Assembly (NCBI GenBank): GCA_965198235.1
Contig: OZ240248.1
Span: forward strand, 4,992,001 to 5,056,000
Reading direction: 5' to 3'
Source: Candidatus Poribacteria bacterium
Lineage (GTDB): Bacteria > Poribacteria > WGA-4E > WGA-3G
Length of the DNA: 64,000 bases
Shown: one piece after another, positions 938 through 55,171 of the stretch
How positions within the stretch are numbered: the stretch's first letter is position 1
Layout: each line of letters begins with the position of its first letter
Notes under the pieces: model-generated
The model's database searches: none
What the model was told of the DNA's origin: nothing
What the model saw: only the letters and a program-made list of their open reading frames with translations
Translations under genes and position numbers: made by a program

Positions 938-1558
938 CTAAAATTCCCATTTCAACAACATGGCGCGGTTGTGCCAGACGAGCACCCCGGTTGCCGTGCC
1001 GATTGCCGCTCCAGTCACCACATCTGAAGTGTAATGCCTTCCCAAATAGATACGCGAGAAACTGACGAGTCCAGCACCGATGTAGAGCGGAATTCGTAAT
1101 TTCGGATACCGATACCCTAAAATTGTTGCAACACTGAACACAATAGACGCATGACCTGACGGTAAGGACGGATTCCCCAACACTTCGTCCAACGGTCGTT
1201 TCCTACCAACCAGTCTTTTCATGCCAAACGTTATAATCCCTGCTCCCATATATGCCGAAGACAGAAGTTTACCTGTTTCCCGATGTGCGTCATTTCCGTA
1301 CGCCATGAGGAGGATAGATGCCCCCATGACTGCTCGATAGTCTCCGAATTTTGAAACCCCTTCCATCATTGTCCACGTCGGTTGCTGGTGTGGTGGCGCA
1401 TCATAGATACGATCAAAGAGTGTTTGATCCCATCTCGATAGAAAGTCTTGAGCATTTGCTTCTAATCCTGCTATAATAGTGCAGAAAACCAGTGCGCATA
1501 AAAGCCATGATTTAAGAGATTTCACTAAGGCATAACTTGTACACTGATACTGCGTCAT
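938..1558 (-). CDS. PAP2-family membrane phosphatase
   Basis: PAP2 motifs KRLVGRKRP, PSGH and SRIYLGRHYTSDV; hydrophobic segments. Confidence 0.9.
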   Translation of the reverse strand: MTQYQCTSYALVKSLKSWLLCALVFCTIIAGLEANAQDFLSRWDQTLFDRIYDAPPHQQPTWTMMEGVSKFGDYRAVMGASILLMAYGNDAHRETGKLLSSAYMGAGIITFGMKRLVGRKRPLDEVLGNPSLPSGHASIVFSVATILGYRYPKLRIPLYIGAGLVSFSRIYLGRHYTSDVVTGAAIGTATGVLVWHNRAMLLKWEF

Positions 1559-1590
1559 GAAACTTGACCCGCCTATTGTGTTATATCCGT

Positions 1591-2943
1591 GTGATAGACC
1601 CCGTGCTAAAGCATCGGTGCTTCTGCAGGTTTATTCTGTAGAAGCACTTGTGGAATTCAGAAGCGGACTGGACGCTTCAACGCAGATGCCGACAATCCTG
1701 TGAAACAGGACAATCGGTCTTATTTCTGCTAACCCAAAGGAAGCTACCCCTTCCTTGAGAATATTTATCGCAGCGTTCTGGTCTCGGTCAAGGTGCGTCT
1801 GACACCTTGGACACGTCCAGTGCCGATCTGCGAGTGTTAGGTCCTTATTATGGTAATCACAAACACAACACGACTTCGTAGTAGGTGTCCACTTATCAAT
1901 CTTCAGCACAGCGCGGATACGTTTTTTACATTGGTGCTTGAGTTTCTCAAAGAACTCGCCAAACGCAAGATCAGAGACCTGTTTTCCCCACAGTTTTTTC
2001 ATACCCTGAAGGTTCAGGTCTTCAAAGAACAGGATGTCAAACTCTCGGCACAGGTCTATGGCAAGTTTCCAATGGTGATCCGCTCTCTGATTCGCGGTCT
2101 TTTTATGAATGCGTGCAACAGTTTTGCGAGAACGTTCTCGGTTGTGAGAACCTTTAACTTTGCGAGAATGTTCTCGCTGTGCTTTGGCGAGTTGCTTGGC
2201 GTTGTGTCTGTAGAACATCGGAGACGTATACCTTTTAGCGTCACTGCCAGTCAGGAAGTCTTTGATTCCCATATCAAACCCTTCCGCTTTACCGGTCTTG
2301 GGTTCGGGAATGACTTCGCTATAGTCTTCAGTGAGAGTGATATAGATGTCTCCAAGTGCGTCCCTTGTAACGTGAACTTGTTGAATAGCACCTTGTATCT
2401 CACGGTGCAGCGCGAAACGATACCAATGCCCATTCAGGCGGATTTTATACGTTGGATGGTTTCTCTTGTTCTTCTGGGCATCACTGACTTTTTCAAACTT
2501 CACCTGTTCACCAGAGAACGTCATACCCTTATGTTTCTTACACGACTTGAAACGAGGACGACCCCGCTTCAGCGTTTTTATTTCTCTAAAACTTTGGGCT
2601 AACCGTTTGAGAACATTTTGAAGACTCCACGCATACGGGATATTCCAATGCTTGTATTGCGGGAGCTTCTTGAGTTTCGTCAGATGCTTCGACATCTTGG
2701 CATACGAAAGGTCTTTACCATACCTACGGTAATACCTTCGCGAAAGCGCATTGAAATGATTTCGCAGAATGCCACAGATATTCAGGTCATTCTGCAGGCG
2801 TTTCAAATGTTTATCGTGAAAAAGTTTATGTATTGTGTTTCGCATAGTTTATCGAGAAAAACATTCATTTTCTTCAACGTGCTAAAGCAGGTCTCACATC
2901 CCCGACCTAAAGGTTCGGGGTTTTAGACCTAAAGGAAACTTTG
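1591..2943 (-). mobile_element. IS200/IS605-family (IS1341-like, tnpB-only) element; ends approximate
   Basis: tnpB is flanked by a subterminal hairpin at ~2900-2920 (CCCCGACCTAAAGGTTCGGGG) and a right-end hairpin at ~1598-1620 followed by TCAC (minus strand, 1594-1591). The 12-mer CGTGCTAAAGCA occurs at 1602 and 2878. No tnpA. Confidence 0.7.
1631..2845 (-). CDS. tnpB: RNA-guided endonuclease TnpB
   Basis: RuvC-I GFDMG, RuvC-II FFEDL, Zn finger CCVC...CPRC, RuvC-III DRDQNAAINI. Confidence 0.92.
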   Translation of the reverse strand: MRNTIHKLFHDKHLKRLQNDLNICGILRNHFNALSRRYYRRYGKDLSYAKMSKHLTKLKKLPQYKHWNIPYAWSLQNVLKRLAQSFREIKTLKRGRPRFKSCKKHKGMTFSGEQVKFEKVSDAQKNKRNHPTYKIRLNGHWYRFALHREIQGAIQQVHVTRDALGDIYITLTEDYSEVIPEPKTGKAEGFDMGIKDFLTGSDAKRYTSPMFYRHNAKQLAKAQREHSRKVKGSHNRERSRKTVARIHKKTANQRADHHWKLAIDLCREFDILFFEDLNLQGMKKLWGKQVSDLAFGEFFEKLKHQCKKRIRAVLKIDKWTPTTKSCCVCDYHNKDLTLADRHWTCPRCQTHLDRDQNAAINILKEGVASFGLAEIRPIVLFHRIVGICVEASSPLLNSTSASTE

Positions 2944-2951
2944 ATAATAAG

Positions 2952-3242
2952 ATGCGAATACGCCATGCCATAGTTGAGTACGACCTTGAAGAGGCAGCAG
3001 CGATGCTCGGTATCTCACCGGCAGACCTCAAACAAGCAGTCAGTACTGGACATCTCCAGTATTATTACCGACTCGATGGAGATGACTATCGGTTCCATGA
3101 GGCGAGTCTCCGCTCCAATAAAGACTTGCTCTCGCAGGAAGATTATCTCGCCAAGGTCCTAAACACGAGCTCGTCTTCAGAAACTACCACGGAGCCTGAC
3201 GCATCGGAAGAGGATCCACCGTCCACGCCATCCGATCCATGA
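2952..3242 (+). CDS. Small excisionase-like helix-turn-helix protein
   Basis: YDLEEAAAMLGISPADLKQAVSTGHL is a MerR/HTH_17-like pattern; acidic disordered tail. Confidence 0.65.
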   Translation: MRIRHAIVEYDLEEAAAMLGISPADLKQAVSTGHLQYYYRLDGDDYRFHEASLRSNKDLLSQEDYLAKVLNTSSSSETTTEPDASEEDPPSTPSDP

Positions 3243-3284
3243 AACGCGCCTGCTGGAAGATCGTTTGAATCCTTTCCATTTCCG

Positions 3285-4094
3285 TTAGTTTGCTTTAAGC
3301 CTGCCCCAGGTAATCGCAAGTTTATCTCGTGCTTCTACGGCGGTCAGTCCTCCGAGACTGTTGTTCATAATATCATTGACTTCTTCCTCTGTCAAACCGC
3401 GTTTCCAGATGTTAAGGTCATCCATCAATCCAGTGAAAGGTCGGTTGTTGTCAATGTTATAGCCGACACGTGCCCCCTGATCCCAATCTCCTGCGATAGG
3501 CGTAGGTACGCGAGCCTTTTCTTCACCGACATTTTCACCGTTGATGTAAAGCACGGCTAATCCCTCTGCTCGGCTGAATGTGCCACCGTAATGTATCCAC
3601 TCATTCGCTTTGTTTTCGCCAGCCCGGATATCGAATAGCGTTGTACCGGGGCTTCGATTGAGCCAACGATAATTTCCGTCCCCCCGTGCTTCTGGATGTA
3701 CAAGCCACGTATTATCGGCTGCACGGGCGTTGAAAATCGCCATATCTGATACGGCTTCAACGTTGAGCCACGCGAGAATACTCATGCCTTCGGTAGGGAT
3801 GTCTTCAGCCTTAATATTGGGACCCTCTAAATCCAAGAAGCTGCCGGATGCGAAATGGGCGGCTTTCCCGAATTTCCCGTCATTTGATTGTGTGACATCT
3901 CCATTAATCTTGCCATCGTAGCCATGTCCGGATTTTTCAACGACAACATCTCCGTTGAAGTCTTCATAATCGAAATACAGTACTAAATCTGGATCTAAAA
4001 CATCAGCTGAAAAAACTTCTACCGTAGGCACACAGAGAGTGCCTATCAGAAGTAAGCACATCAGATAAGGGGTGAGTATAAAGTTCTGTCTCAT
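3285..4094 (-). CDS. Secreted LamG/concanavalin A-like protein with C-terminal TWG tail
   Basis: Signal peptide, LVLYFDYE, GKFGKA, FTGLMDDLNIWKRGL, tail AVEARDKLAITWGRLK. Confidence 0.85.
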   Translation of the reverse strand: MRQNFILTPYLMCLLLIGTLCVPTVEVFSADVLDPDLVLYFDYEDFNGDVVVEKSGHGYDGKINGDVTQSNDGKFGKAAHFASGSFLDLEGPNIKAEDIPTEGMSILAWLNVEAVSDMAIFNARAADNTWLVHPEARGDGNYRWLNRSPGTTLFDIRAGENKANEWIHYGGTFSRAEGLAVLYINGENVGEEKARVPTPIAGDWDQGARVGYNIDNNRPFTGLMDDLNIWKRGLTEEEVNDIMNNSLGGLTAVEARDKLAITWGRLKAN

Positions 4095-45370: not shown

Positions 45371-45525
45371 CTCGACGGATAGCCTCTAATCCGCTGACCT
45401 TTGTGAAGGTGCATCCGAAAATGTGTATGAGTGGTAAAATTGAATCACTTTACTTACCCGACACTTTTCGCGGTAAAATTTCCGTGGAACCTGAAGCGGA
45501 ATAGCTGCAGTAACGGAGGCAGATA

Positions 45526-47067
45526 GTGATAAACCTTTGTAATGTCCTAAATAGTTCGATACGTCTACAGGTGCAGGCACATTGGGAACCGATTGCGGAT
45601 TCTACGTTTCGTATGCACAAGACATCGCCAGAACACGTTGAACTCTTCGATCTGTCACCAAACCATCCTGTCAAAGAATACAGGACAGACGCTTTCAAGG
45701 CATTTCTTCCGTCATCAACTGTAGGGGTGGGTGATGTTTGGGAACTTGATCCGAACAGTGTTGTCTCTTTCCTGCGCCAGTTTCATTCCGGTGTGACCAC
45801 ACCCGTATATCACGGTGCGGAGGGTGCGTTCGCCTGCTTACGTGCTTTTTCGTCAGTTTACGCTGAGATTGTTTTCCGAATTCATGCGGACTTCACGTTG
45901 GAAAGCGTCGCTTATGAGAAGTGGCGTGCCGCCAACGCCTCGGAGGACGACGATAATAAATCCCGTTTTGTCCCCTCCCATTTCGTCGGACGATTGTTAA
46001 TCAATTTGAAAGAAGGAACGGTTCGGGTGTTTTCGCTCTATCTGCCGGCACGCAATAGTAACGTTGTCATCAGTGCTTTTGGCGGTATTGATATGGTTTA
46101 TGTGCCGCGTATGGAACTCCTCGCTACGGACGAGACCGACAAAGACGAGATCGCGTGGGATGCTGCTATTACAACGGAAGAGGCACACCGGATGTTGGAA
46201 TTGAAGTTCTATAAATTCGCTGAGATTGATTGGCTACCGATTGATGAGGCAGTTGCACAGGCGAAAGCGACCAATCGTCCGATCCATGCAATCCTCGTCT
46301 GGGGGTGTTTAGACGATGAATCCTGCTGAGCGAACGGCAAATATTTGAGGGCGGGTCCGCTCTCCGATTCAGAAGTGATAACAACGCTCAACGAGAAGTT
46401 TGTCAATACATGGGTGCTCCTCCGGGAATTGCCAGAACTAATAGGTGGTGCGAAAGGCGAGGCGGTCAGCCTCGTCGCAAAAGAGATAAAACGCCACTAC
46501 ACTGACTCTGTAGATATTCTGGCACTCACCCCCGATGCGGAAGTTATCATGCATCAGCCGGAGATGGCTCTACCGTACAGGAACCAGGCGCAAGCGTATC
46601 TAAAAGTGTTACAGCATGCTGTGGACGCATTTGAAGGGAGACGCACCCGTGTAGGCAACGCGTCAAAATTAGATCGGAACCCGATCAGCTTGGGGACGGA
46701 GTTGATGGAGGTTTTACACGTTTTTAGCACATCCGACACCAATACCCCGACTTACACAGTTATTGAAATTGATACGACACCGTTTGAACGCGGTGGGATC
46801 CTCCACATTGAAATACATGTGGGTGAGAACAGGTTGGCAGGAACGTTTGAATTGTTTGATGCAGATACCGAAATTTCTACAAAAAATGATGAAGATGAAA
46901 CTCTGGATGGTGCATGGAACGTTTCATCCGGTGGTGTAGGGCACATCTTTCACGATTTTAGTCGGGGTCGGCGTTTCAAGTTAGTCGCTACAGGGGCAAA
47001 CAACCAAAAGAGTGTTTCCAATGCTTTTCTGGCACGTGTCTCTATCGTCCCACCGTTTGAAAAATAG
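45526..47067 (+). CDS. Selenoprotein N-like protein 1, Sec at TGA 46327-46329 (~513 aa)
   Basis: ORFs 45526-46329 and 46345-47067 are in frame; read-through gives VWGCLDDESC-U-ANGKYLRAGPLSDSEVITTLNEKFVNTW; GGAGG RBS before GTG; hairpin downstream of TGA. Confidence 0.8.
46347..46364 (+). promoter_or_regulatory. Candidate bacterial SECIS element
   Basis: GAGGGCG-GGTC-CGCTCTC hairpin with GU in the loop, 17 nt after TGA. Confidence 0.7.
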
Positions 47068-47357: not shown

Positions 47358-48398
47358 ATGAAACATAAGTCGGTTTCTCCTTTTTTAGGAGTTGGAGGCT
47401 GCACCAAATTTCTAATATTCAGTTATGCTATCAGTGCCCTACTCATGTTCAGCGGCAGCACTGCTGTATGGGCAAAAGCCCCGGAGACAGCGAAAATTAC
47501 ATTTATGTCAAAGCGGGACGGTAACGCTGAGATCTATATCATGAACCCCGACGGGAGTGAGCAAGTCAATCTCACCCAACATCGTGCAGCCGATTATACA
47601 CCAGCCTGGTCGCCAAACGGGAAACAGATATTGTTCAGCTCAGATCGAGATGGAATTTTTGATTTGTATCTTATGGACGCAGATGGCACAAATGTCCGGA
47701 AGGTGTTCGCAAGCAGCAAATACAGATGGGAGCCTGCCTGGTCGCCCGATGGTAAACGAATTGCCTATGCACAAGGAGATCCAGGAAAGGCAAAACTACA
47801 GTTTGGGTTACGATTTGTCCCTTACGCCGATCTCACACTTTACATCGCAACACTAAATGGAGACTCCGTTGAGAAATTGACGGATGGATTTGGTCCGAGT
47901 TGGTCTCCTGATGGACACGAGATAGCCTTTGTGGTGGGTGGTCGCAAAAGTACACTACTGGGTATTTACGACTTGAGGAAACGTTCCCAAAAAACGCTCA
48001 TCTCAAAGAAGATGCCGTGGATATTTGATCCCAGCTGGTCTGCACAGGGTGACAGAATAGCTTTCGCGAAACTCGAGGGTGCTGCGTTTGATGCACAAGG
48101 TTTTCTTAGGTTTAAGAAGGGTACGATTTACACCATAGATAGTGCTGGGGGTGGACTTCATCAGATTACCGACGAGAACTCTTCTGACCCAACCTGGTCC
48201 CCAGATGGCAGCGAACTCATTTACAACTCTCGGGTGGGTTTTTCGCAACTCTTCAGAACGGGCTTGAACGGCGACAATCCAACACAACTGACGCATGACG
48301 GAAGTAATTTGAGTCCAGATTGGTTTGACCCCTTTTATAGCGTTTCGCCGTCGGCGCAATTGTTAACGACGATGTGGGGAAAAATCAAAGTGGATTAA
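47358..48398 (+). CDS. Secreted TolB-like PD40 beta-propeller with TWG tail
   Basis: Repeated PAWSPDG motifs; tail [16 protein letters not shown]. Confidence 0.88.
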
Positions 48399-48493
48399 GT
48401 TAACTATAAATCGTTCCAGATTCAGGGCAGTGAATGCCTTTTGCTTCCAATTGTCAAAATTTATTCCCAGATTTTCATTTTTTTTCAGAATTA

Positions 48494-48522
48494 GGCAACC
48501 GTTTTTCCGATCCTCCGCGTCA
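48494..48522 (+). promoter_or_regulatory. Candidate ECF sigma promoter, copy 2
   Basis: GAATTA-GGCAAC-N18-CGTCA-CTATAT. Confidence 0.7.
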
Positions 48523-48594
48523 CTATATATCAACACGATATTTGTGTGACAAATTTTGGAAGATTCAAATGACTCCATAGGAGGAAGCGAAAAC

Positions 48595-49416
48595 ATGTTA
48601 CGGACATTTACTGCTGCTTTTTCGAGTGTCATTATGCTATTGCTGGCAGCTTCTGCCAACGCGGGTTTGGATGAAGATCTCGTTTTTTATCTGACCTTTG
48701 ATAACGTTAAAAATCAGACGATTATTGATGAATCTGGCAATGGTCTTGATGCAGAAATACTTGAGCATGTCGAGATTGTCAAGGGTAAATATGGAGATGC
48801 AATCCGTCTTAAAGGTCAAAGCGGGGATTGCGTTAATATCCCTGCTCAAGAGAAATTGAAAGTTATAGGCGAGATAACAATGATGGCATGGATTTATTCT
48901 CCAGAAACATGGAACAACGAGAAGATGCATTGGCTGGAAAAAGATTGTCATTTCGTTGTTCCGATTGGTTGGGCGCACTGTTACGGTATCGCTGGTGTTG
49001 ATGTCGGTAACGGACCAGAAATCTTTTTGTTTTTGGGATCACAGGTAGAGGGGAAATGGGACCGGCAGGAGTTCAGAACTCCACATAAAATGGGCGAAAA
49101 AAAATGGCATCACGTTGTCGGAAGTTACGATGGCGAAACCATGAAAATCTATGTGGATGGTACAGTCATAGGGGAAGAAAAGAAAAAATTCAATTTCTTT
49201 GGAGACAATGACGCGGACGTTCGGATCGGATGTGCAAAAGATGTCCCCCACCTTACATTCACAAACGGCTCTATTGATGAAGCTGCGGTCTGGCAACGAG
49301 CACTGAGTGATGATGAAATTAAACAAGCCATGACAGGGAACTTTCTCGCTGTTTCGCCGAGCGATAAAGTGGCGACGACTTGGGCGGATATGAAAAGAAG
49401 AGCAGTCGTTCCTTAA
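48595..49416 (+). CDS. Secreted LamG-like protein
   Basis: LVFYLTFD, WHHVVGSYDG, GSIDEAAVWQRAL; tail VSPSDKVATTWADMK. Confidence 0.85.
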   Translation: MLRTFTAAFSSVIMLLLAASANAGLDEDLVFYLTFDNVKNQTIIDESGNGLDAEILEHVEIVKGKYGDAIRLKGQSGDCVNIPAQEKLKVIGEITMMAWIYSPETWNNEKMHWLEKDCHFVVPIGWAHCYGIAGVDVGNGPEIFLFLGSQVEGKWDRQEFRTPHKMGEKKWHHVVGSYDGETMKIYVDGTVIGEEKKKFNFFGDNDADVRIGCAKDVPHLTFTNGSIDEAAVWQRALSDDEIKQAMTGNFLAVSPSDKVATTWADMKRRAVVP

Positions 49417-49459
49417 CGGCTACCTGCAAAGTCAGAATTTCCCCATAAAGGAATGTAGG

Positions 49460-50482
49460 ATGAAAACAATACGGTTGTTAGTTTTTGCCATATTGAACAT
49501 ATTGATGCTGAACGTAAGCGTTTGCCTCGCTTTCGCAACAGCACCCACAACCGCCAAAATTCTGTTCACCTCTTCACGGGACGGCAATTATGAGGTCTAC
49601 ATCATGAATCCGGACGGTAGTGAACAGGTGAATTTAACACAACATCGCGCAAATGATTTTCAAGCCGTATGGTCCCCCACTGGGGAGCAGATTCTTTTTG
49701 TCTCCGATCGCGATGGCGGCATCCGAGACTTGTATCTGATGGACCCCAGTGGATCCAATGTCCGACGCGTTTTCACGAGGAAACGAAAGTCTTATAGGGA
49801 TTCTCCGACGTGGGCACCCGATGGCAACCAGATTGCTTACGTACACCTGAATTGGAACGGTGTCAGGTTCCATATCTACGTTGCAATCTTGGGTAAACAA
49901 AAAGAGGAACACCTCGTTGAGGGTAGACGTCCGACGTGGTCACCCGATGGAACGAAAATAGCATATATGTCTTATATTGTAGATACCTGCCGAATTGCTC
50001 TTATTGACCCCCACACACGAAGGCAAAAACACCTCCTATCGAGGAAAGCAACGCCTTGGCAAAATCATCCATTTTGGTCGGCTACGGGGAGCAAACTCGC
50101 TTTTTCTTGGAATAAGAATCCGTTACCGCGCCTTTTGCCGGGTGATCGTTTCCCATCCGTATGGCTGGATAAGGAGACAATCTATATTGTGAACAGCGAC
50201 GGGACCGATCTCCGAGAACTTCTGGATGAAGCTGGGCCCAGAGCACAGTATCCAGTGTTGTCGCCAGACGGGAAAGAGGTACTTTATACACAAGAAATTA
50301 AGGGTCGCCTACAAATTTTCAAACTTGATGTACACAGTGCCACTCGGGCACAGTTGACAAATATCGGGCGAGTCTTTGAGGCGAATTTCGGAGGGGATTG
50401 GTTCGATCCTGTGTATTCGTTGCCTGTTTCGCCACAATCGCGACTGCTAAGCACAGTATGGGGAAAAGTAAAAAAGAAATAG
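49460..50482 (+). CDS. Secreted TolB-like PD40 beta-propeller
   Basis: WSPTG/WAPDG/WSPDG repeats; paralog of 47358; tail VSPQSRLLSTVWGKVK. Confidence 0.88.
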   Translation: MKTIRLLVFAILNILMLNVSVCLAFATAPTTAKILFTSSRDGNYEVYIMNPDGSEQVNLTQHRANDFQAVWSPTGEQILFVSDRDGGIRDLYLMDPSGSNVRRVFTRKRKSYRDSPTWAPDGNQIAYVHLNWNGVRFHIYVAILGKQKEEHLVEGRRPTWSPDGTKIAYMSYIVDTCRIALIDPHTRRQKHLLSRKATPWQNHPFWSATGSKLAFSWNKNPLPRLLPGDRFPSVWLDKETIYIVNSDGTDLRELLDEAGPRAQYPVLSPDGKEVLYTQEIKGRLQIFKLDVHSATRAQLTNIGRVFEANFGGDWFDPVYSLPVSPQSRLLSTVWGKVKKK

Positions 50483-50568
50483 TGTCATAGGTAGAATCAC
50501 CATGAAACTGCTGTGTTATGCACGTTTTCCGCTTTGTGTATCATATTTTCTTTATGTTTGCAGAATTA

Positions 50569-50597
50569 GGCAACCGTTTTGTCTGTCTCCCGCGTCA
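50569..50597 (+). promoter_or_regulatory. Candidate ECF sigma promoter, copy 3
   Basis: GAATTA-GGCAAC-N18-CGTCA-TTATAT. Confidence 0.7.
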
Positions 50598-50669
50598 TTA
50601 TATATCGATACGATAGCTGTGTGACAAATTTTAGAAAGTTCAAATGACTCTATAGGAGGAACAGAAAAC

Positions 50670-51491
50670 ATGTTACGGACATTTATTGCTGCTTTTTCGA
50701 GTGTCGTTATACTGTTGTTGGCAGCTCCTGCCAACGCAGGTTTGAATGAGAAACTCGTTTTTTATCTGACGTTTGATAATGTTAAAGATCAGACAGTTGT
50801 TGACGAATCTGGGAATGGTCAGGACGCAGAGATACTTGAGAACACCGAGATTGTCAGGGGCAAATATGGGAATGCCATTCATATTACAGATGATGGTCAG
50901 GATTGCGTCAGTATTCCTTCTCAGGAAAAACTGAAAATTACAAGCGAAATAACAATGATGACCTGGATTTATTATCAAGAAACATGGAAAGGCAAAAGGA
51001 TGTTGCATTGGCTTGATAAAGGCTGCCATTCGGGAGACGGTTGGGCTGGAACTTACGGTATCGGCAGTTCCGATATCGGTAACGGACCAGAGATTGTGTT
51101 GTTTTTCGGGTCGCGGGAGAAACAGGGGATTACGGACCGGCATGAATTCGCAGTTCTACACAAAATGGGTGTTCAAAAATGGCATCATGTTGCTGGGAGC
51201 TACGATGGGAAAACCATGAAAATTTATTTAGATGGTAAAGTCATAGGTGCGGAAAAGAAGAATTTCAATCTCTTTGGTGGTAATAACGTGAACCTCAGGA
51301 TCGGATGCGCAAAAAACAGCCCGCAGTATGCATTTGCCAACGGTTCTATTGACGAAGCCGCAGTCTGGCAACGAGCATTGAGTGATGATGAAATCAAGCA
51401 GGCGATGGTAGGGGACTTCCTCGCTGTTTCACCGAGTGATAAAGTTGCAACGACTTGGGCGGATGTGAAAAAGAGGATGATAGCCCGTTAG
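50670..51491 (+). CDS. Secreted LamG-like protein, paralog of 48595
   Basis: High similarity including the 5' UTR; tail VSPSDKVATTWADVK. Confidence 0.85.
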   Translation: MLRTFIAAFSSVVILLLAAPANAGLNEKLVFYLTFDNVKDQTVVDESGNGQDAEILENTEIVRGKYGNAIHITDDGQDCVSIPSQEKLKITSEITMMTWIYYQETWKGKRMLHWLDKGCHSGDGWAGTYGIGSSDIGNGPEIVLFFGSREKQGITDRHEFAVLHKMGVQKWHHVAGSYDGKTMKIYLDGKVIGAEKKNFNLFGGNNVNLRIGCAKNSPQYAFANGSIDEAAVWQRALSDDEIKQAMVGDFLAVSPSDKVATTWADVKKRMIAR

Positions 51492-51639: not shown

Positions 51640-52066
51640 CTATATATCGAGATTAGAATCTACGCGAAGAACAACTTTTTGTATAAGTGTTGTTTGCGTA
51701 GAATGTTCTTGTTAATTGCTATAACGTGAGTTCAATATGAGAAATTGGTTCACTATATAGGTCGTGTTGAACAAAAAGGGACATAACACCCAAGATGCAT
51801 ATTTTGCTCCGTAGGAGCAACATGTCTATAGCAGTCGTCCGACACGACGTTTCCGCGCCGTAGGTGCGGTATGTAGTATCACCAGAGATAGCTCCGCTGG
51901 GAGTGCGAGTACTTGGGCATCGGGTTTTCTATTCTCACTGCGAAGCAATAGTACTGCTCTGGAGCGATGGAATTTGTCCGTCACCTGCTTGGAATAGGCG
52001 TGATATATCCTGTCGAATCTTTCTAATCTTTATGTCAACTCCACGTTACTATAAGGAGATTTGAAG

Positions 52067-53746
52067 ATGAAAATCTTAACCGTTGGGTTTCTTATTCTGG
52101 TAATGATGAGTGGAGTGCTGAATGCCGATAACCACTCAACAACTCACAACAAAATTACACTGAACCTTGACGGGACCCCAGAAGTATCTGTCAAAGGCTT
52201 CATTGCTCCGATTGAATATACACAATACAATTTCCATGTGGAGTGGGATGAACTGGCAAATCTGCGGGTTGCTGAGCCGGAGAAGCGGTATTCTGCATCG
52301 GTTTTCCATGCCTTTCTGCCCTCCGAAGCGGTTTCTGTAGGCGATCTCTGGCAGATTGAGGAAGAGGGGGTGCTAGAATTACTAAGGCAACTGAACCCCA
52401 ATCCGAGGCTGGACCTGGACATCAATATGGGAGATTCCCGTGGACTGTGGGCATGTCTGCGCGCCTACAATGATGAATTTGCTAAGATTGTGTTCCGCAT
52501 CCATGCAGAATTCGTCTTAAACGATGGTCGGTTCACTCCATCTCAGTTTACAGGACATCTTGTTATTGATCGAATTAGAGAGAGGATTGCCTCCTTCAAG
52601 ATGTATGTTCCTGAAGGTGTACTGAATTTTGATGTCGGGCGAAACAGTATCGGAGCTATAGATGTCGGTTTTTGCCCGCAAATGGAACTCCGTGCTAAGG
52701 CACCAGAAGTGGTATCGGACATCAAGTTTGCGGAGTCCATCACCCAAGAAGCGGCTGAGCGGGTGCTGATACTGCGTTTCTACAGATCGCAACAAATCAA
52801 CTGGGTGTCTCTGGAAGAAGCGTTAGAGACGGCACCGGCGCAACGAAAACCTGTTCATGTTGTTTCGATAGATGGACCGCTTGCGGATGAGTCGTGCTGA
52901 GGGAGTGGCAAAACTCTGAGGGCAGTTGTCCTCTCTGACGATAAAATTATAGAGTTCTTGAACGAAAACTTTGTTAACACATGGGTGCCGAATTCTGAAT
53001 TAGGGCGCGTCTCCAGTTTGCGGGAGCCGATTGACAAGAGACGCGAGCGCGAAGGTAAAACGTTTGACACAAGCCACGCCTTGGCACAAGCAATTATAAA
53101 GGGTTGGAAAGAGGGGTCGCCTGTGGATTGTCTGGTTATCTCGCCGGAGTTTGAAGTGATGGGTAGGCAACCTGTCAACGAAATCGGGTGGTCCAACGGA
53201 GTAGCATTTTACATGAATTTCCTCCAAGAGTCCTTAGAGGGGAAACTACCAGGGTTCGGTGAGGCCGCCTCGAAACCTTTACCGAAACCTAGTTCAGAGT
53301 CTTACTCTGGATTAGGTGCTGTTGTGCCAGAGGATTTAAAAGTTATACTCACCCGTGAAAAGCCCCAGCAGGAAGTTCTCAGCATTTTCCGGACACCAGA
53401 ATCCGGCTATCAAGATTATACTGTCGTTGAAATTGATACGACAGCGTTTAAAGGCGGCGGTATGCTTACTATTGATATCTTAGTAGGAAGTGCTGAATCC
53501 AAAGGCTCGTTCGATCTTTATGATGGTGACACTGAACTTCCAACACAAGGTATGCCTCGCGGCGCGCTTACCTCTGCGTGGGATGTTCCTCCCGGTAAAA
53601 GAGGAACAATCAAGTATCGTTTTGACCGGGGTAAAGTTTTTAAGTTAGGAGCTACAGGCAGTTGGTTCAGTAAGGAAGGGAACATCAACGCTTTTCTCGC
53701 TACAATTTCTGTAGCCCCTATGGCGAAAGAAAGTAACGAACATTAA
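52067..53746 (+). CDS. Selenoprotein N-like protein 2, secreted, Sec at TGA 52898-52900 (~559 aa)
   Basis: ORFs 52061-52900 and 52958-53746 are in frame; read-through gives GPLADESC-U-GSGKTLRAVVLSDDKIIEFLNENFVNTW; signal peptide MKILTVGFLILVMMSGVLNA. Confidence 0.85.
52918..52933 (+). promoter_or_regulatory. Candidate bacterial SECIS element
   Basis: GAGGGC-AGTT-GTCCTC hairpin with GU in the loop, 17 nt after TGA (same offset as copy 1). Confidence 0.7.
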
Positions 53747-53842: not shown

Positions 53843-55171
53843 ATGAAAAACGACGATGTCGAATTAATTCAAGGCAGTCTTATAGGCGATGAAAAAGCCT
53901 TTGCGAAGTTGGTGAGAAAATACCAGAAGCAGGTTCACGCACTCGCGTGGCGGAAAGTAGGCGATTTCCACATCGCTGAAGAGATTACGCAGGATACCTT
54001 TTTAAGGGTTTATAAGAAACTGGCAACGCTGAAGGATCCGCATCGTTTTGCAGGATGGCTTTATAGAATCGCTGCACGCCAATGCCATGCCTGGCTCAGA
54101 AAGAAACGGATGCAAACGCAATCGCTTGAAGACACAGACATCGAACTGATAGAGGGAGGGACGTATTCTCAATACATTGCCGAGGAGCAGGAGAAAGCTG
54201 CGGTAGATGCGCAACGCGATATTGTCCAAAGGTTACTCGCTCGGCTGCAGGAAAGTGAACGCACTGTCGTCACACTCCACTACTTCGGGGAGATGACCTG
54301 TGAAGAGATTAGCCGATTTTTGGGTGTATCAGAGAGTACCGTTAAGAGTCGGCTCCGCCGTGCGCGGCACCGCTTAAAGAAGGCGGAACCCATGATCCGA
54401 GAGGCACTGGAAGGCTTCCAAGTTAGGGCGAATCTCACCGAGAATATCATGCAAGAAATTGCCCGTATCAAACCTACTCCACCGCCCAGTGGTAAACCGT
54501 TTGTGCCGTGGACAATTGCCGCCTCAACCCTTGTTCTCGTTGTGATGGCACTTGGAGCAAGTAGTCAGTACTTAACACGTTTCCAACAACCTTACAATTT
54601 TGATGCCACATCCGAAATGACAGTAGAACTCATTGACACGCCTATGGTTCTGAATCTCGCATCGAAACCGGATGTGCGGACCCAAGCCGGTAAATCTGTG
54701 ACACCGAGTAAAGGCGACGGACATACCCCGAGCACAAATCAATCAGAATATGTGCCGAGATTTCTTTCTGCCCAAGCAAAGAACGTCGTGCTTGATAATA
54801 AACAGCCTTCGCAGGATGTTTTGAGCATTTTCCAAACACCGGCGGCGGGCTATCAAGACTACACTGTCATTGAGATTGATACGACGGCATTTAAAGATGG
54901 CGGCACGGTCACTATCGACCTTTGGATTGGGAGCGCAGAGGCTGCTGGTGCTTTCATTCTGTTTACAAGCGACAGCGAAATCCCCACAGACAGTATGCCT
55001 AAGGTTATACTCACCTCAGCATCAGGAATCATACCCGGTAAATCAGGGCGGATCACGCACCGTTTTGACGAAGGCACACGCTTTAAGTTAGGAGCTACCG
55101 GTAATTCGTTCAGTGGGGAAGGGAAGGTCAATTCCTTTCTCGCAAAAATCTCTATAGACGCTACGTTGTGA
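53843..55171 (+). CDS. ECF sigma-70 factor fused to a TM helix and an extracytoplasmic domain
   Basis: Region 2 (AEEITQDTF, FAGWLYRIA), region 4 (EEISRFLGVSESTVKSRLRRAR), TM WTIAASTLVLVVMALGA; C-terminal domain shared with both SelN-like proteins. Confidence 0.9.
   Translation: MKNDDVELIQGSLIGDEKAFAKLVRKYQKQVHALAWRKVGDFHIAEEITQDTFLRVYKKLATLKDPHRFAGWLYRIAARQCHAWLRKKRMQTQSLEDTDIELIEGGTYSQYIAEEQEKAAVDAQRDIVQRLLARLQESERTVVTLHYFGEMTCEEISRFLGVSESTVKSRLRRARHRLKKAEPMIREALEGFQVRANLTENIMQEIARIKPTPPPSGKPFVPWTIAASTLVLVVMALGASSQYLTRFQQPYNFDATSEMTVELIDTPMVLNLASKPDVRTQAGKSVTPSKGDGHTPSTNQSEYVPRFLSAQAKNVVLDNKQPSQDVLSIFQTPAAGYQDYTVIEIDTTAFKDGGTVTIDLWIGSAEAAGAFILFTSDSEIPTDSMPKVILTSASGIIPGKSGRITHRFDEGTRFKLGATGNSFSGEGKVNSFLAKISIDATL

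Follow-up and report, generated by a model that had tools for sequence, protein, structure and literature searches.

SELENON is among the genes that underlie human disease (SELENON-related myopathies). Its product, selenoprotein N (SelN), is an endoplasmic reticulum (ER)-membrane, Ca2+-sensing redox selenoprotein with an N-terminal transmembrane anchor and an EF-hand. According to the available part of a 2026 SelN review, disease is caused by mutations in the selenocysteine redefinition element (SRE), a hairpin that immediately follows the UGA of SELENON (PMC12839072), and in a further review the SRE is said to resemble a bacterial selenocysteine insertion sequence (SECIS) element (PMC12936836). 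SelN is listed as an animal innovation in the accessible portions of two publications (PMC2375036; PMC7016017). Here, we analyze a window of 64,000 nucleotides from the genome of a Candidatus Poribacteria bacterium (GenBank assembly GCA_965198235.1, contig OZ240248.1, positions 4,992,001 to 5,056,000 of the forward strand), in which the gene at 52067-53746 on the plus strand is, very probably, a real homologue of SELENON that encodes selenocysteine (Sec).

The SelN-like frame and its in-frame UGA

Translation table 11 cuts this gene into two open reading frames (ORFs) of the same frame, 52061..52900 and 52958..53746. The initial annotation had joined them across the TGA at 52898, a description that proves right to the base: with TGA read as U, the stretch 52067-53746 becomes a single frame of 559 residues, and its sole non-standard step is U278 (TGA 52898-52900). 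The TGA sits within S-C-U-G-S-G-K, the surrounding residues being ...VSIDGPLADESC-U-GSGKTLRAVVLSDDKIIEFLNENFVNTW (in a shorter upstream excerpt, HVVSIDGPLADESC-U-GSGKTLRAVVLSDDKIIEFLNENFVNTW). ATG 52067 was taken as the start rather than TTG 52061, because an AGGAG stands 8 nucleotides upstream of it.

BLASTP aligns the window protein with animal sequences at 27-32% identity, and the alignments with Nematostella P0209 (1e-33, query 35-373) and wombat P0223 (6e-31, query 102-306) both cross the TGA, so that the comparison with SELENON proposed in the initial annotation is significant on either side of it. A profile of eight family members (A2), searched against 1.84 billion cluster representatives, matches 973 proteins at E ≤1e-3 and 236 at E ≤1e-30, including Nematostella P0209 (4.1e-48), wombat P0223 (2.1e-46) and jellyfish P0232. 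When these three animal sequences were used as seeds, 273 proteins were found, and the 120 matches listed are vertebrate and echinoderm, mostly named 'Selenoprotein N' by UniRef/NCBI. The window protein contains the block DVGFCPQMEL together with a second upstream block named in the initial annotation, and the animal counterparts given there are borne out by the horse 'Selenoprotein N' record P0272, which contains DIGYIPQMEL and the other motifs named. Database models of the animal gene mostly omit the U-G residues; ESC-U-GSGK at U278 aligns with the U motif of animal models and of the eukaryote-type contigs described below, and the position aligned with U278 is, in the available part of the SelN review, the redox-active Sec of SELENON (PMC12839072). 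As judged by sequence comparison, homology to SELENON is established both before and after the UGA.

The part of animal SELENON that is homologous to the window protein, on either side of Sec, comprises the N-terminal beta and thioredoxin-like domains, and the same S-C-U-G motif occupies the same column. The window protein differs in having a putative signal peptide instead of the transmembrane anchor and EF-hand, and an extra C-terminal beta sandwich of ~130 residues; furthermore, the Poribacteria genome holds five paralogs, whereas animal SELENON is a single gene. When animal-type features (a type II anchor with EF-hand, and a SECIS element in the 3′ untranslated region) were looked for, the window gene did not show them: Pfam finds no EF-hand in the protein at E up to 1, and Rfam SECIS_1 has no match in the 3 kb after the gene (locus L001) nor in any of the 6 bacterial loci searched, two of which are the window's own. 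Among the animal homologues, the Pfam EF-hand match is weak in jellyfish P0232 (22.5 bits against a cut-off of 25, E 7.7e-05) and absent in the wombat and Nematostella sequences.

The genome (5.17 Mb, 96% complete, with the window gene on a 5.12-Mb contig) contains selA (517.7 bits), selB, selD (359.8 bits) and a tRNA-Sec (78.1 bits, cut-off 47) with anticodon TCA directly beside selB, all above curated cut-offs; the Sec machinery for which the initial annotation had suggested looking is thus present. The selD gene (G000:C1:3115227-3116150, minus strand, locus L021) contains one in-frame TGA of its own and is on this account regarded as a selenoprotein gene itself. TGA doubles as an ordinary stop in this genome, and the gene next to the SelN-like one ends with it (55169-55171).

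The five paralogs of the genome, 32-63% identical to the window copy by alignment, each contain exactly one in-frame TGA, always in the same column (Sec motifs SCUGSGK, ACUGSGK, SCUANGK twice and SCUGTGK). A codon-blind scan for the downstream motif LNENF.NTW in the 5 own loci and 77 loci of other genomes gave 116 distinct matches; 115 have a TGA twenty codons upstream and one is a spurious minus-strand match, and TGA stands at the Sec column in 115/115 family genes across 82 loci. Many of these 7.6-kb loci contain two or three tandem family genes. Across 151 genomes of the phylum, the best 150 matches listed have one TGA in 141 cases and none in 9; in the three of these 9 whose codon was read, the Sec column is Gly (GGA or GGC), one base from TGA.

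A metagenome scan with six members of a second bacterial branch of the family (see below) yielded 52 loci, and in the 45 that reach the Cys (7 partial ones were left out) TGA is the next codon in 45/45. Bacterial-type loci, U-PSGTDLRAGLLS, make up 33 of the 45; they have ~115 residues after U, lack the C-terminal sandwich, and show a GC content of 52-70% on the 13 measured. The other 12 are of eukaryotic type, U-GSGRTLRE, some being interrupted as by introns, and in one of these contigs (L141) Rfam reports a SECIS_1 match of 40.6 bits at 2335-2399, 3′ of the ORF. Cys-Cys homologues carry DESCCGSGK (P0124 and P0129) or DEACCATGK (P0152), and a protein search with the Cys-form homologues (A6) found 17 metagenome proteins. 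Sec/Cys pairs at a redox position are a classic signature of a genuine selenoprotein family. Decoding of UGA 52898 as Sec would be carried out by the genome's own SelA, SelB, SelD and tRNA-Sec, directed by a short hairpin ~18 nucleotides downstream (+21..+36, loop AGUU/AGGU/GGUC). The initial annotation's view of a bacterial selenoprotein N homologue hidden as two ORFs is upheld by the homology, the Sec machinery, the conserved TGA and the conserved hairpin.

Some members of the family depart from this pattern. The Gly orthogroup comprises loci L101-L103 (genomes G066, G069 and G097) and proteins P0002-P0014, with Ser replacing the adjacent Cys in one case; P0015 has Trp at the Sec column, and in the Gly and Trp homologues the N-terminal domain contains an insertion of 28 residues. 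Their sequences suggest that the Gly and Trp forms, single-base changes from TGA, are redox-dead derivatives. The idea that the Gly forms are gene calls made under code 25 or 4 was ruled out by real GGA/GGC codons. Paralog p2 (G000:C1:2836866-2838533, locus L002), 67% identical to the window gene by BLAST and 63% by alignment, ends at a second TGA, apparently its true stop, so that both meanings of TGA occur within one gene. In the called protein P0017, the C-terminal half of a family member runs into a second N-terminal half ending ...DDESC, and some tandem genes may accordingly have fused into a two-Sec protein. The eukaryote-type contigs lie in the range L141-L159; among them L148 is divergent (U-GSARNMRDGHLKDD) and may derive from a distant eukaryote.

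Contigs of three sponge metatranscriptome runs contain pieces of the window gene (52285-52745) at 99-100% identity, and the RNA runs in which parts of it occur bear the label sponge metagenome. A 1443-nucleotide RNA contig with one mismatch covers 45400-46654 and spans the TGA of paralog p4 at 46327.

The hairpin 3′ of the UGA and the SRE

In an ungapped alignment of the family (A5; 115 copies, 106 distinct), counted with the U of the UGA as +1, positions +21..+26 pair with +31..+36 as GAGGGC-AGGU-GUCCUC. Standard pairs fill 96.2% of the stem cells, as against 46-83% after a shift of the 3′ arm by 1-3 columns, and 14 cells are compensatory, with G-C changed to A-U on both sides; neither the observed pairing nor the covariation is matched in any of 500 shuffles, and RNAalifold recovers the same helix. 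Synonymous third positions in the stem are nearly frozen among the 106 distinct copies (Leu +21 is G in 106/106, Ala +27 A in 100/106, Gly/Val +30 T in 105/106 and Leu +36 C in 103/106). Some subfamilies, three of the genome's own paralogs among them, pair in a register displaced by two, GAGAGCG-GGUC-CGCUCUC at +21..+38. In the second bacterial branch, a perfect 7-bp stem (+21..+27/+32..+38) with loop GGUC is found in 31/33 loci, three of which show a compensatory A:U to C:G change, and the 2 exceptions carry frame-breaking indels. Paralog p4 (45526-47067), ~5 kb upstream of the window gene, belongs to the GGUC-loop subfamily with the shifted register.

Judging from this pattern, the conserved hairpin is probably a bacterial SECIS (bSECIS) element, with putative SelB binding. 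Bacterial SECIS elements are likewise hairpins within the coding region, a short and constant distance 3′ of the UGA. A selB gene is present, and the apical loop of the window family contains G-G-U, which we take to be comparable with the loop of the E. coli fdhF hairpin; the stem, however, is just 6-7 bp long.

In the eukaryote-type contigs, the 63 nucleotides after the UGA form long hairpins whose apical loop falls within +26..+32 in 10/12 cases, with energies of -22 to -38 kcal/mol; the two exceptions are a divergent contig and one cut by an apparent intron. Bacterial apical loops lie at +27..+30 or +28..+31. The SRE is thus like the bacterial hairpin in standing immediately 3′ of the UGA with its loop at about the same nucleotides, but its stem is 16 bp or longer, against 6-7 bp, and the arms consist of different nucleotides. 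Because the arm sequences differ, the likeness is one of position only, and the correspondence of the loops may instead be convergence set by ribosome geometry.

Domain architecture and the adjacent sigma factor

The AlphaFold2 model of the window protein, computed with 44 family rows, has a predicted local distance difference test (pLDDT) score of 82.6. Its predicted layout comprises a disordered N-terminus (MKILTVGFLILVMMSGVLNA/DN), a beta-rich region at ~30-215, a disordered linker at 400-422 and a beta sandwich at 424-551, while residues 225-395 follow the order beta-alpha-beta-alpha-beta-beta-alpha, with C277-U278 between the first strand and the first helix. The thioredoxin-fold domain modelled separately reaches a pLDDT of 86.3. 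Foldseek matches this middle domain best with DsbH 2ju5 (E 9e-6), Thioredox_DsbH 7tkv, 3f9u, a DsbD-like domain, AGR2/AGR3, ERp19, UAS 2dlx and thioredoxins. For the N-terminal beta domain Foldseek gave no convincing fold match in the PDB, and with the whole three-domain model it returned only generic beta-sandwich PDB matches (PPC, GOLD, CBM6).

In the DsbH/Thioredox_DsbH (PF03190, DUF255), AGR2/AGR3/ERp18-19 and UAS folds the redox motif occupies the same fold position as in the window family. These folds have CxxC, however, whereas the window family has a vicinal C-U, and the flanking N- and C-terminal domains of the window protein are absent from them; with a score of 11.8 bits against a gathering threshold of 27 for Thioredox_DsbH (PF03190), the modelled likeness appears to be one of fold only. 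The protein would consist of a signal peptide, an N-terminal beta domain, a DsbH/AGR-like thioredoxin fold in which the vicinal Cys-Sec pair (SCUG) takes the place of the thioredoxin CxxC, and a C-terminal beta sandwich, and would be secreted (periplasmic). The predicted fold makes it fairly likely that the protein is a thiol/selenol oxidoreductase of the cell envelope, acting outside the cytoplasm, which by analogy with SELENON would reduce oxidised cysteines of envelope proteins or peroxide-damaged targets. Three of the own paralogs lack a signal peptide. In paralog p5 (G000:C1:1798432-1800177, locus L005; SCUGTGK) the beta sandwich is replaced by a C-terminal Redoxin/AhpC-TSA domain (Pfam 1e-20), whose assignment agrees with a redox role.

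The next gene, 53843-55171, encodes regions 2 and 4 of an extracytoplasmic function (ECF) sigma factor (Pfam), a hydrophobic span and a C-terminal domain with 58% identity to selenoprotein residues 424-550. In 28/77 Poribacteria loci a sigma ortholog (73-93% identical over the first 200 residues) is encoded downstream in the same orientation, and in P0125 and P0131 an ECF sigma-70 (regions 2 and 4) is fused to a SelN-like domain ending at the Sec codon. Modelled as a complex, the two sandwich domains score 0.69 in ipSAE (interaction prediction score from aligned errors), against 0.00 for the best control; this mark is reached by 58/80 solved complexes and 2/110 mismatched pairs, at least 97% of contacts are common to the runs, and the partner pLDDT is at least 85. 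We tentatively consider a link between the selenoprotein and the adjacent sigma factor possible: the selenoprotein would dock on the sensor domain of the sigma factor through the paired homologous beta sandwiches, and docking would couple the redox state of the envelope to transcription. The sigma-SelN fusion type occurs as open frames of 581-595 amino acids in several Poribacteria genomes and is, in effect, a sigma factor that has a selenoprotein as its sensor domain.

Family breadth, origin and alternative readings

Among species-representative genomes, the name Poribacteria is attached to 74 of the best 77 loci and 'uncultured bacterium' to the other 3, and within the phylum the family is found in 117/151 genomes (f1, 97/99; f2, 9/10; f3, 10/26; f4-f9, 0/15 searched). 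Trees were calculated on the N-terminal 253 columns with FastTree (132 rows) and with IQ-TREE LG+C20 in a quick run (61 rows), from rows picked by coverage of profile positions 30-277 with shorter ones dropped; they are unrooted, and sponges, ctenophores and choanoflagellates are not represented in them. The animal sequences are united in a single clade (support 100) with a long stem of 0.77-0.94, and a split supported by Shimodaira-Hasegawa-like approximate likelihood ratio test (SH-aLRT) values of 98 (FastTree) and 96 (IQ-TREE) separates the five own paralogs and their kin from the animals plus the second bacterial branch. Members of the latter end in WGALDDQSC before U, like animals, have lipobox-type signal peptides, a bacterial hallmark, and show no more than 41% identity to any sequence of the 151 Poribacteria genomes searched. 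The tree with metazoan SelN that the initial annotation had called for thus places the animal clade with the second bacterial branch, in a data set built without sponge sequences. Directly upstream of the SelN-like gene of one second-branch locus (L108, 3853-5330) lies a P-type ATPase gene (1092-3797), which was considered as an echo of the SELENON-SERCA relation and rejected; the neighbourhood is treated as chance because the DKTGT[LI]T motif occurs in L108 only among all loci compared.

Given the second bacterial branch, the family extends beyond sponge symbionts, and in the sequences compared its bacterial diversity is deeper than its animal diversity. Two origins had been offered at the outset, host-symbiont gene transfer and an unrecognised bacterial family. 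The latter, as an old family of which the Poribacteria copies are a lineage-specific expansion, fits the sequences better than a recent sponge-to-symbiont transfer, in view of the 973 representatives, the divergent second branch and the grouping of the animals with that branch. Transfer from bacteria to animals is, on the sequence evidence, a reasonably likely course, and SelN may be an interdomain transfer rather than an animal innovation. A more speculative hypothesis, to which we give rather less than even credence, is that a selenoprotein of the bacterial envelope was the ancestor of animal SELENON and that the SRE is its surviving bacterial SECIS, the two hairpins being of common descent. 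Transfer near the origin of animals would have carried the UGA together with the following hairpin, and the SRE would have kept the UGA readable while the eukaryotic 3′ SECIS evolved. If true, this would be a worked example of a selenoprotein gene crossing the decoding barrier between bacteria and eukaryotes, and a bacterial redox sensor wired to ECF sigma factors would foreshadow the ER sensor role of SELENON. The likeness of the SRE to a bacterial SECIS gains a testable explanation from the bacterial homologues, whose loop lies at the same nucleotides.

Several observations weigh against the window gene being a functional selenoprotein gene of the kind proposed. The window's own 66 nucleotides fold no better than shuffles (z -0.56), and their minimum-energy fold consists of other helices; the stem of the window hairpin has only 6 bp, including a G.U pair; conservation of the hairpin largely overlaps the conserved residues L-R-A-G-x-L-S; changes on both sides occur in only one of the six stem pairs; and subfamilies differ in stem register, two being in use. 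The short stem, the single covarying pair, the residue overlap and the uninformative own fold are the reasons why the bSECIS is graded as probable rather than proven. Searches of the window protein gave nothing significant in Pfam (only Thioredox_DsbH, at the sub-threshold score given above and E 0.23), NCBIfam or PDB sequences, and a profile of 44 family members had 0 matches to PDB sequences at E up to 10. In the three sponge runs no RNA contig cleanly spans 52898 and parts of the gene are uncovered; the metatranscriptome evidence consists of assembled contigs, to which DNA carry-over may contribute and which say nothing on level or transcript ends. The 28/77 loci with a downstream sigma ortholog are close kin, for which reason their synteny is not independent evidence, and the complex model, with a symmetric interface between paralogous domains of 58% identity, may show mere domain homodimerisation. 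What is said here on Sec insertion, on secretion, on redox activity and on sigma binding is inferred throughout.

Were the TGA a true stop, the locus would encode a separate 277-residue N-terminal protein and a C-terminal protein from an internal start. This would agree with the two ORFs of standard gene calling, with the fact that most database entries of the family finish at ...C or begin after it, and with the use of TGA as an ordinary stop in the genome. The cut would, however, divide a single thioredoxin fold after its strand 1 and before its helix 1, and the frame is maintained across the TGA in every copy examined; the codons 52901-52957, before the first possible start, are conserved and homologous to SELENON, Cys and Gly homologues continue through the column, and Sec machinery and hairpin are present. 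Termination at this codon is accordingly very improbable. We have no more reason to expect read-through of the UGA without Sec, by near-cognate insertion of Trp or Cys or by SelB-independent recoding. The Trp of P0015 and the Gly of one orthogroup do indicate that the column tolerates other residues in some lineages, and the hairpin is weak in the window copy, but the Sec machinery is complete and includes a selenoprotein SelD, true Cys homologues are found at the column, the loop GGUC/AGGU stands at a fixed distance from the UGA, and the position is that of the redox-active Sec of SELENON in the available part of the SelN review (PMC12839072). Decoding of the UGA as Sec is the reading we prefer.

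As to where the gene came from, misassembly, with sponge DNA binned into a bacterial genome, comes to mind for a host-associated metagenome sample; its probability is next to nothing for an intron-free gene with a Shine-Dalgarno site, situated among dense bacterial genes 77 kb inside the end of a 5.12-Mb contig and belonging to a family present in 117/151 genomes of the phylum. A recent transfer from the host, in which Poribacteria gained SELENON from a sponge as a 'eukaryote-like protein' and then multiplied it, deserves more attention, since 74/77 of the best genome loci are named Poribacteria, the RNA runs with the window are labelled sponge metagenome, the accessible portions of two papers treat SelN as animal-specific (PMC2375036; PMC7016017), and the unrooted tree would permit a root on the animal stem. 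It is nevertheless unlikely. The second bacterial branch, with its GC of 52-70%, lipobox signals and identity of at most 41% to the Poribacteria genomes searched, groups with the animals against the Poribacteria branch (SH-aLRT 96 and 98) and shares a motif with them; the animal stem is long (0.77-0.94), the Poribacteria copies are only 27-32% identical to animal sequences, and the bacterial genes have bacterial-type hairpins, with no EF-hand found by Pfam in the window protein. An old bacterial family thus accounts best for the present data.

NCBI names the family members 'hypothetical protein' and NCBIfam has no model for the family, which annotation systematically splits at the Sec codon. 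The words 'bacteria' and 'homolog' are absent from the available part of the 2026 SelN review (PMC12839072), and a 2026 review of prokaryotic selenoproteomes makes no mention of SelN, of SELENON as a protein, of Poribacteria or of sponges. No description of a bacterial or Poribacteria SelN-like protein was found by full-text searches of the literature, with supplements and subscription journals outside the search. A large bacterial SELENON-related family, a SelB-type, multi-domain version of SELENON, has apparently not been described before. PDB sequence searches found no solved structure of the SelN family, for which the bacterial members offer tractable, intron-free, soluble homologues suited to structure determination and enzymology, with natural Sec, Cys, Gly and Trp active-site variants available. 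The ECF sigma fusions and neighbours and the Redoxin fusion point to envelope redox sensing.

Table 1. Positions of the SelN-like gene, its parts and related features in the window
Feature	Coordinates	Strand	Basis and remarks
Shine-Dalgarno-like AGGAG	52054..52058	+	8 nt before ATG 52067; read from sequence
SelN-like selenoprotein gene	52067..53746	+	559 codons and stop, one in-frame TGA; homology to animal selenoprotein N
Probable signal peptide, MKILTVGFLILVMMSGVLNA / DN	52067..52126	+	Read from sequence; residues 1-25 pLDDT <50
N-terminal beta-rich domain, ~residues 30-215	52154..52711	+	AlphaFold2 model and alignments; ACLRA and CPQMEL common to animal SELENON
Thioredoxin-fold domain, residues 216-400	52712..53266	+	Domain model; redox pair C277-U278 after strand 1 and before helix 1
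TGA read as selenocysteine, U278	52898..52900	+	Column conserved as TGA across the family
bSECIS-like hairpin, GAGGGC-AGUU-GUCCUC	52918..52933	+	+21..+36 from U of UGA; family alignment
C-terminal beta-sandwich domain, residues 423-551	53333..53719	+	Model; 58% identical to C-terminal domain of next gene
ECF sigma-70 (regions 2 and 4), membrane span, extracytoplasmic beta sandwich	53843..55171	+	Pfam, homology; probable regulatory partner
Second SelN-like selenoprotein gene, paralog p4, SCUANGK	45526..47067	+	TGA 46327-46329; without signal peptide

Between the two SelN-like genes of the window, 47358-51491 on the plus strand holds a duplicated pair of secreted proteins: 47358..48398 resembles 49460..50482, with repeats that look TolB/PD40-like by eye, and 48556..49416 resembles 50670..51491.

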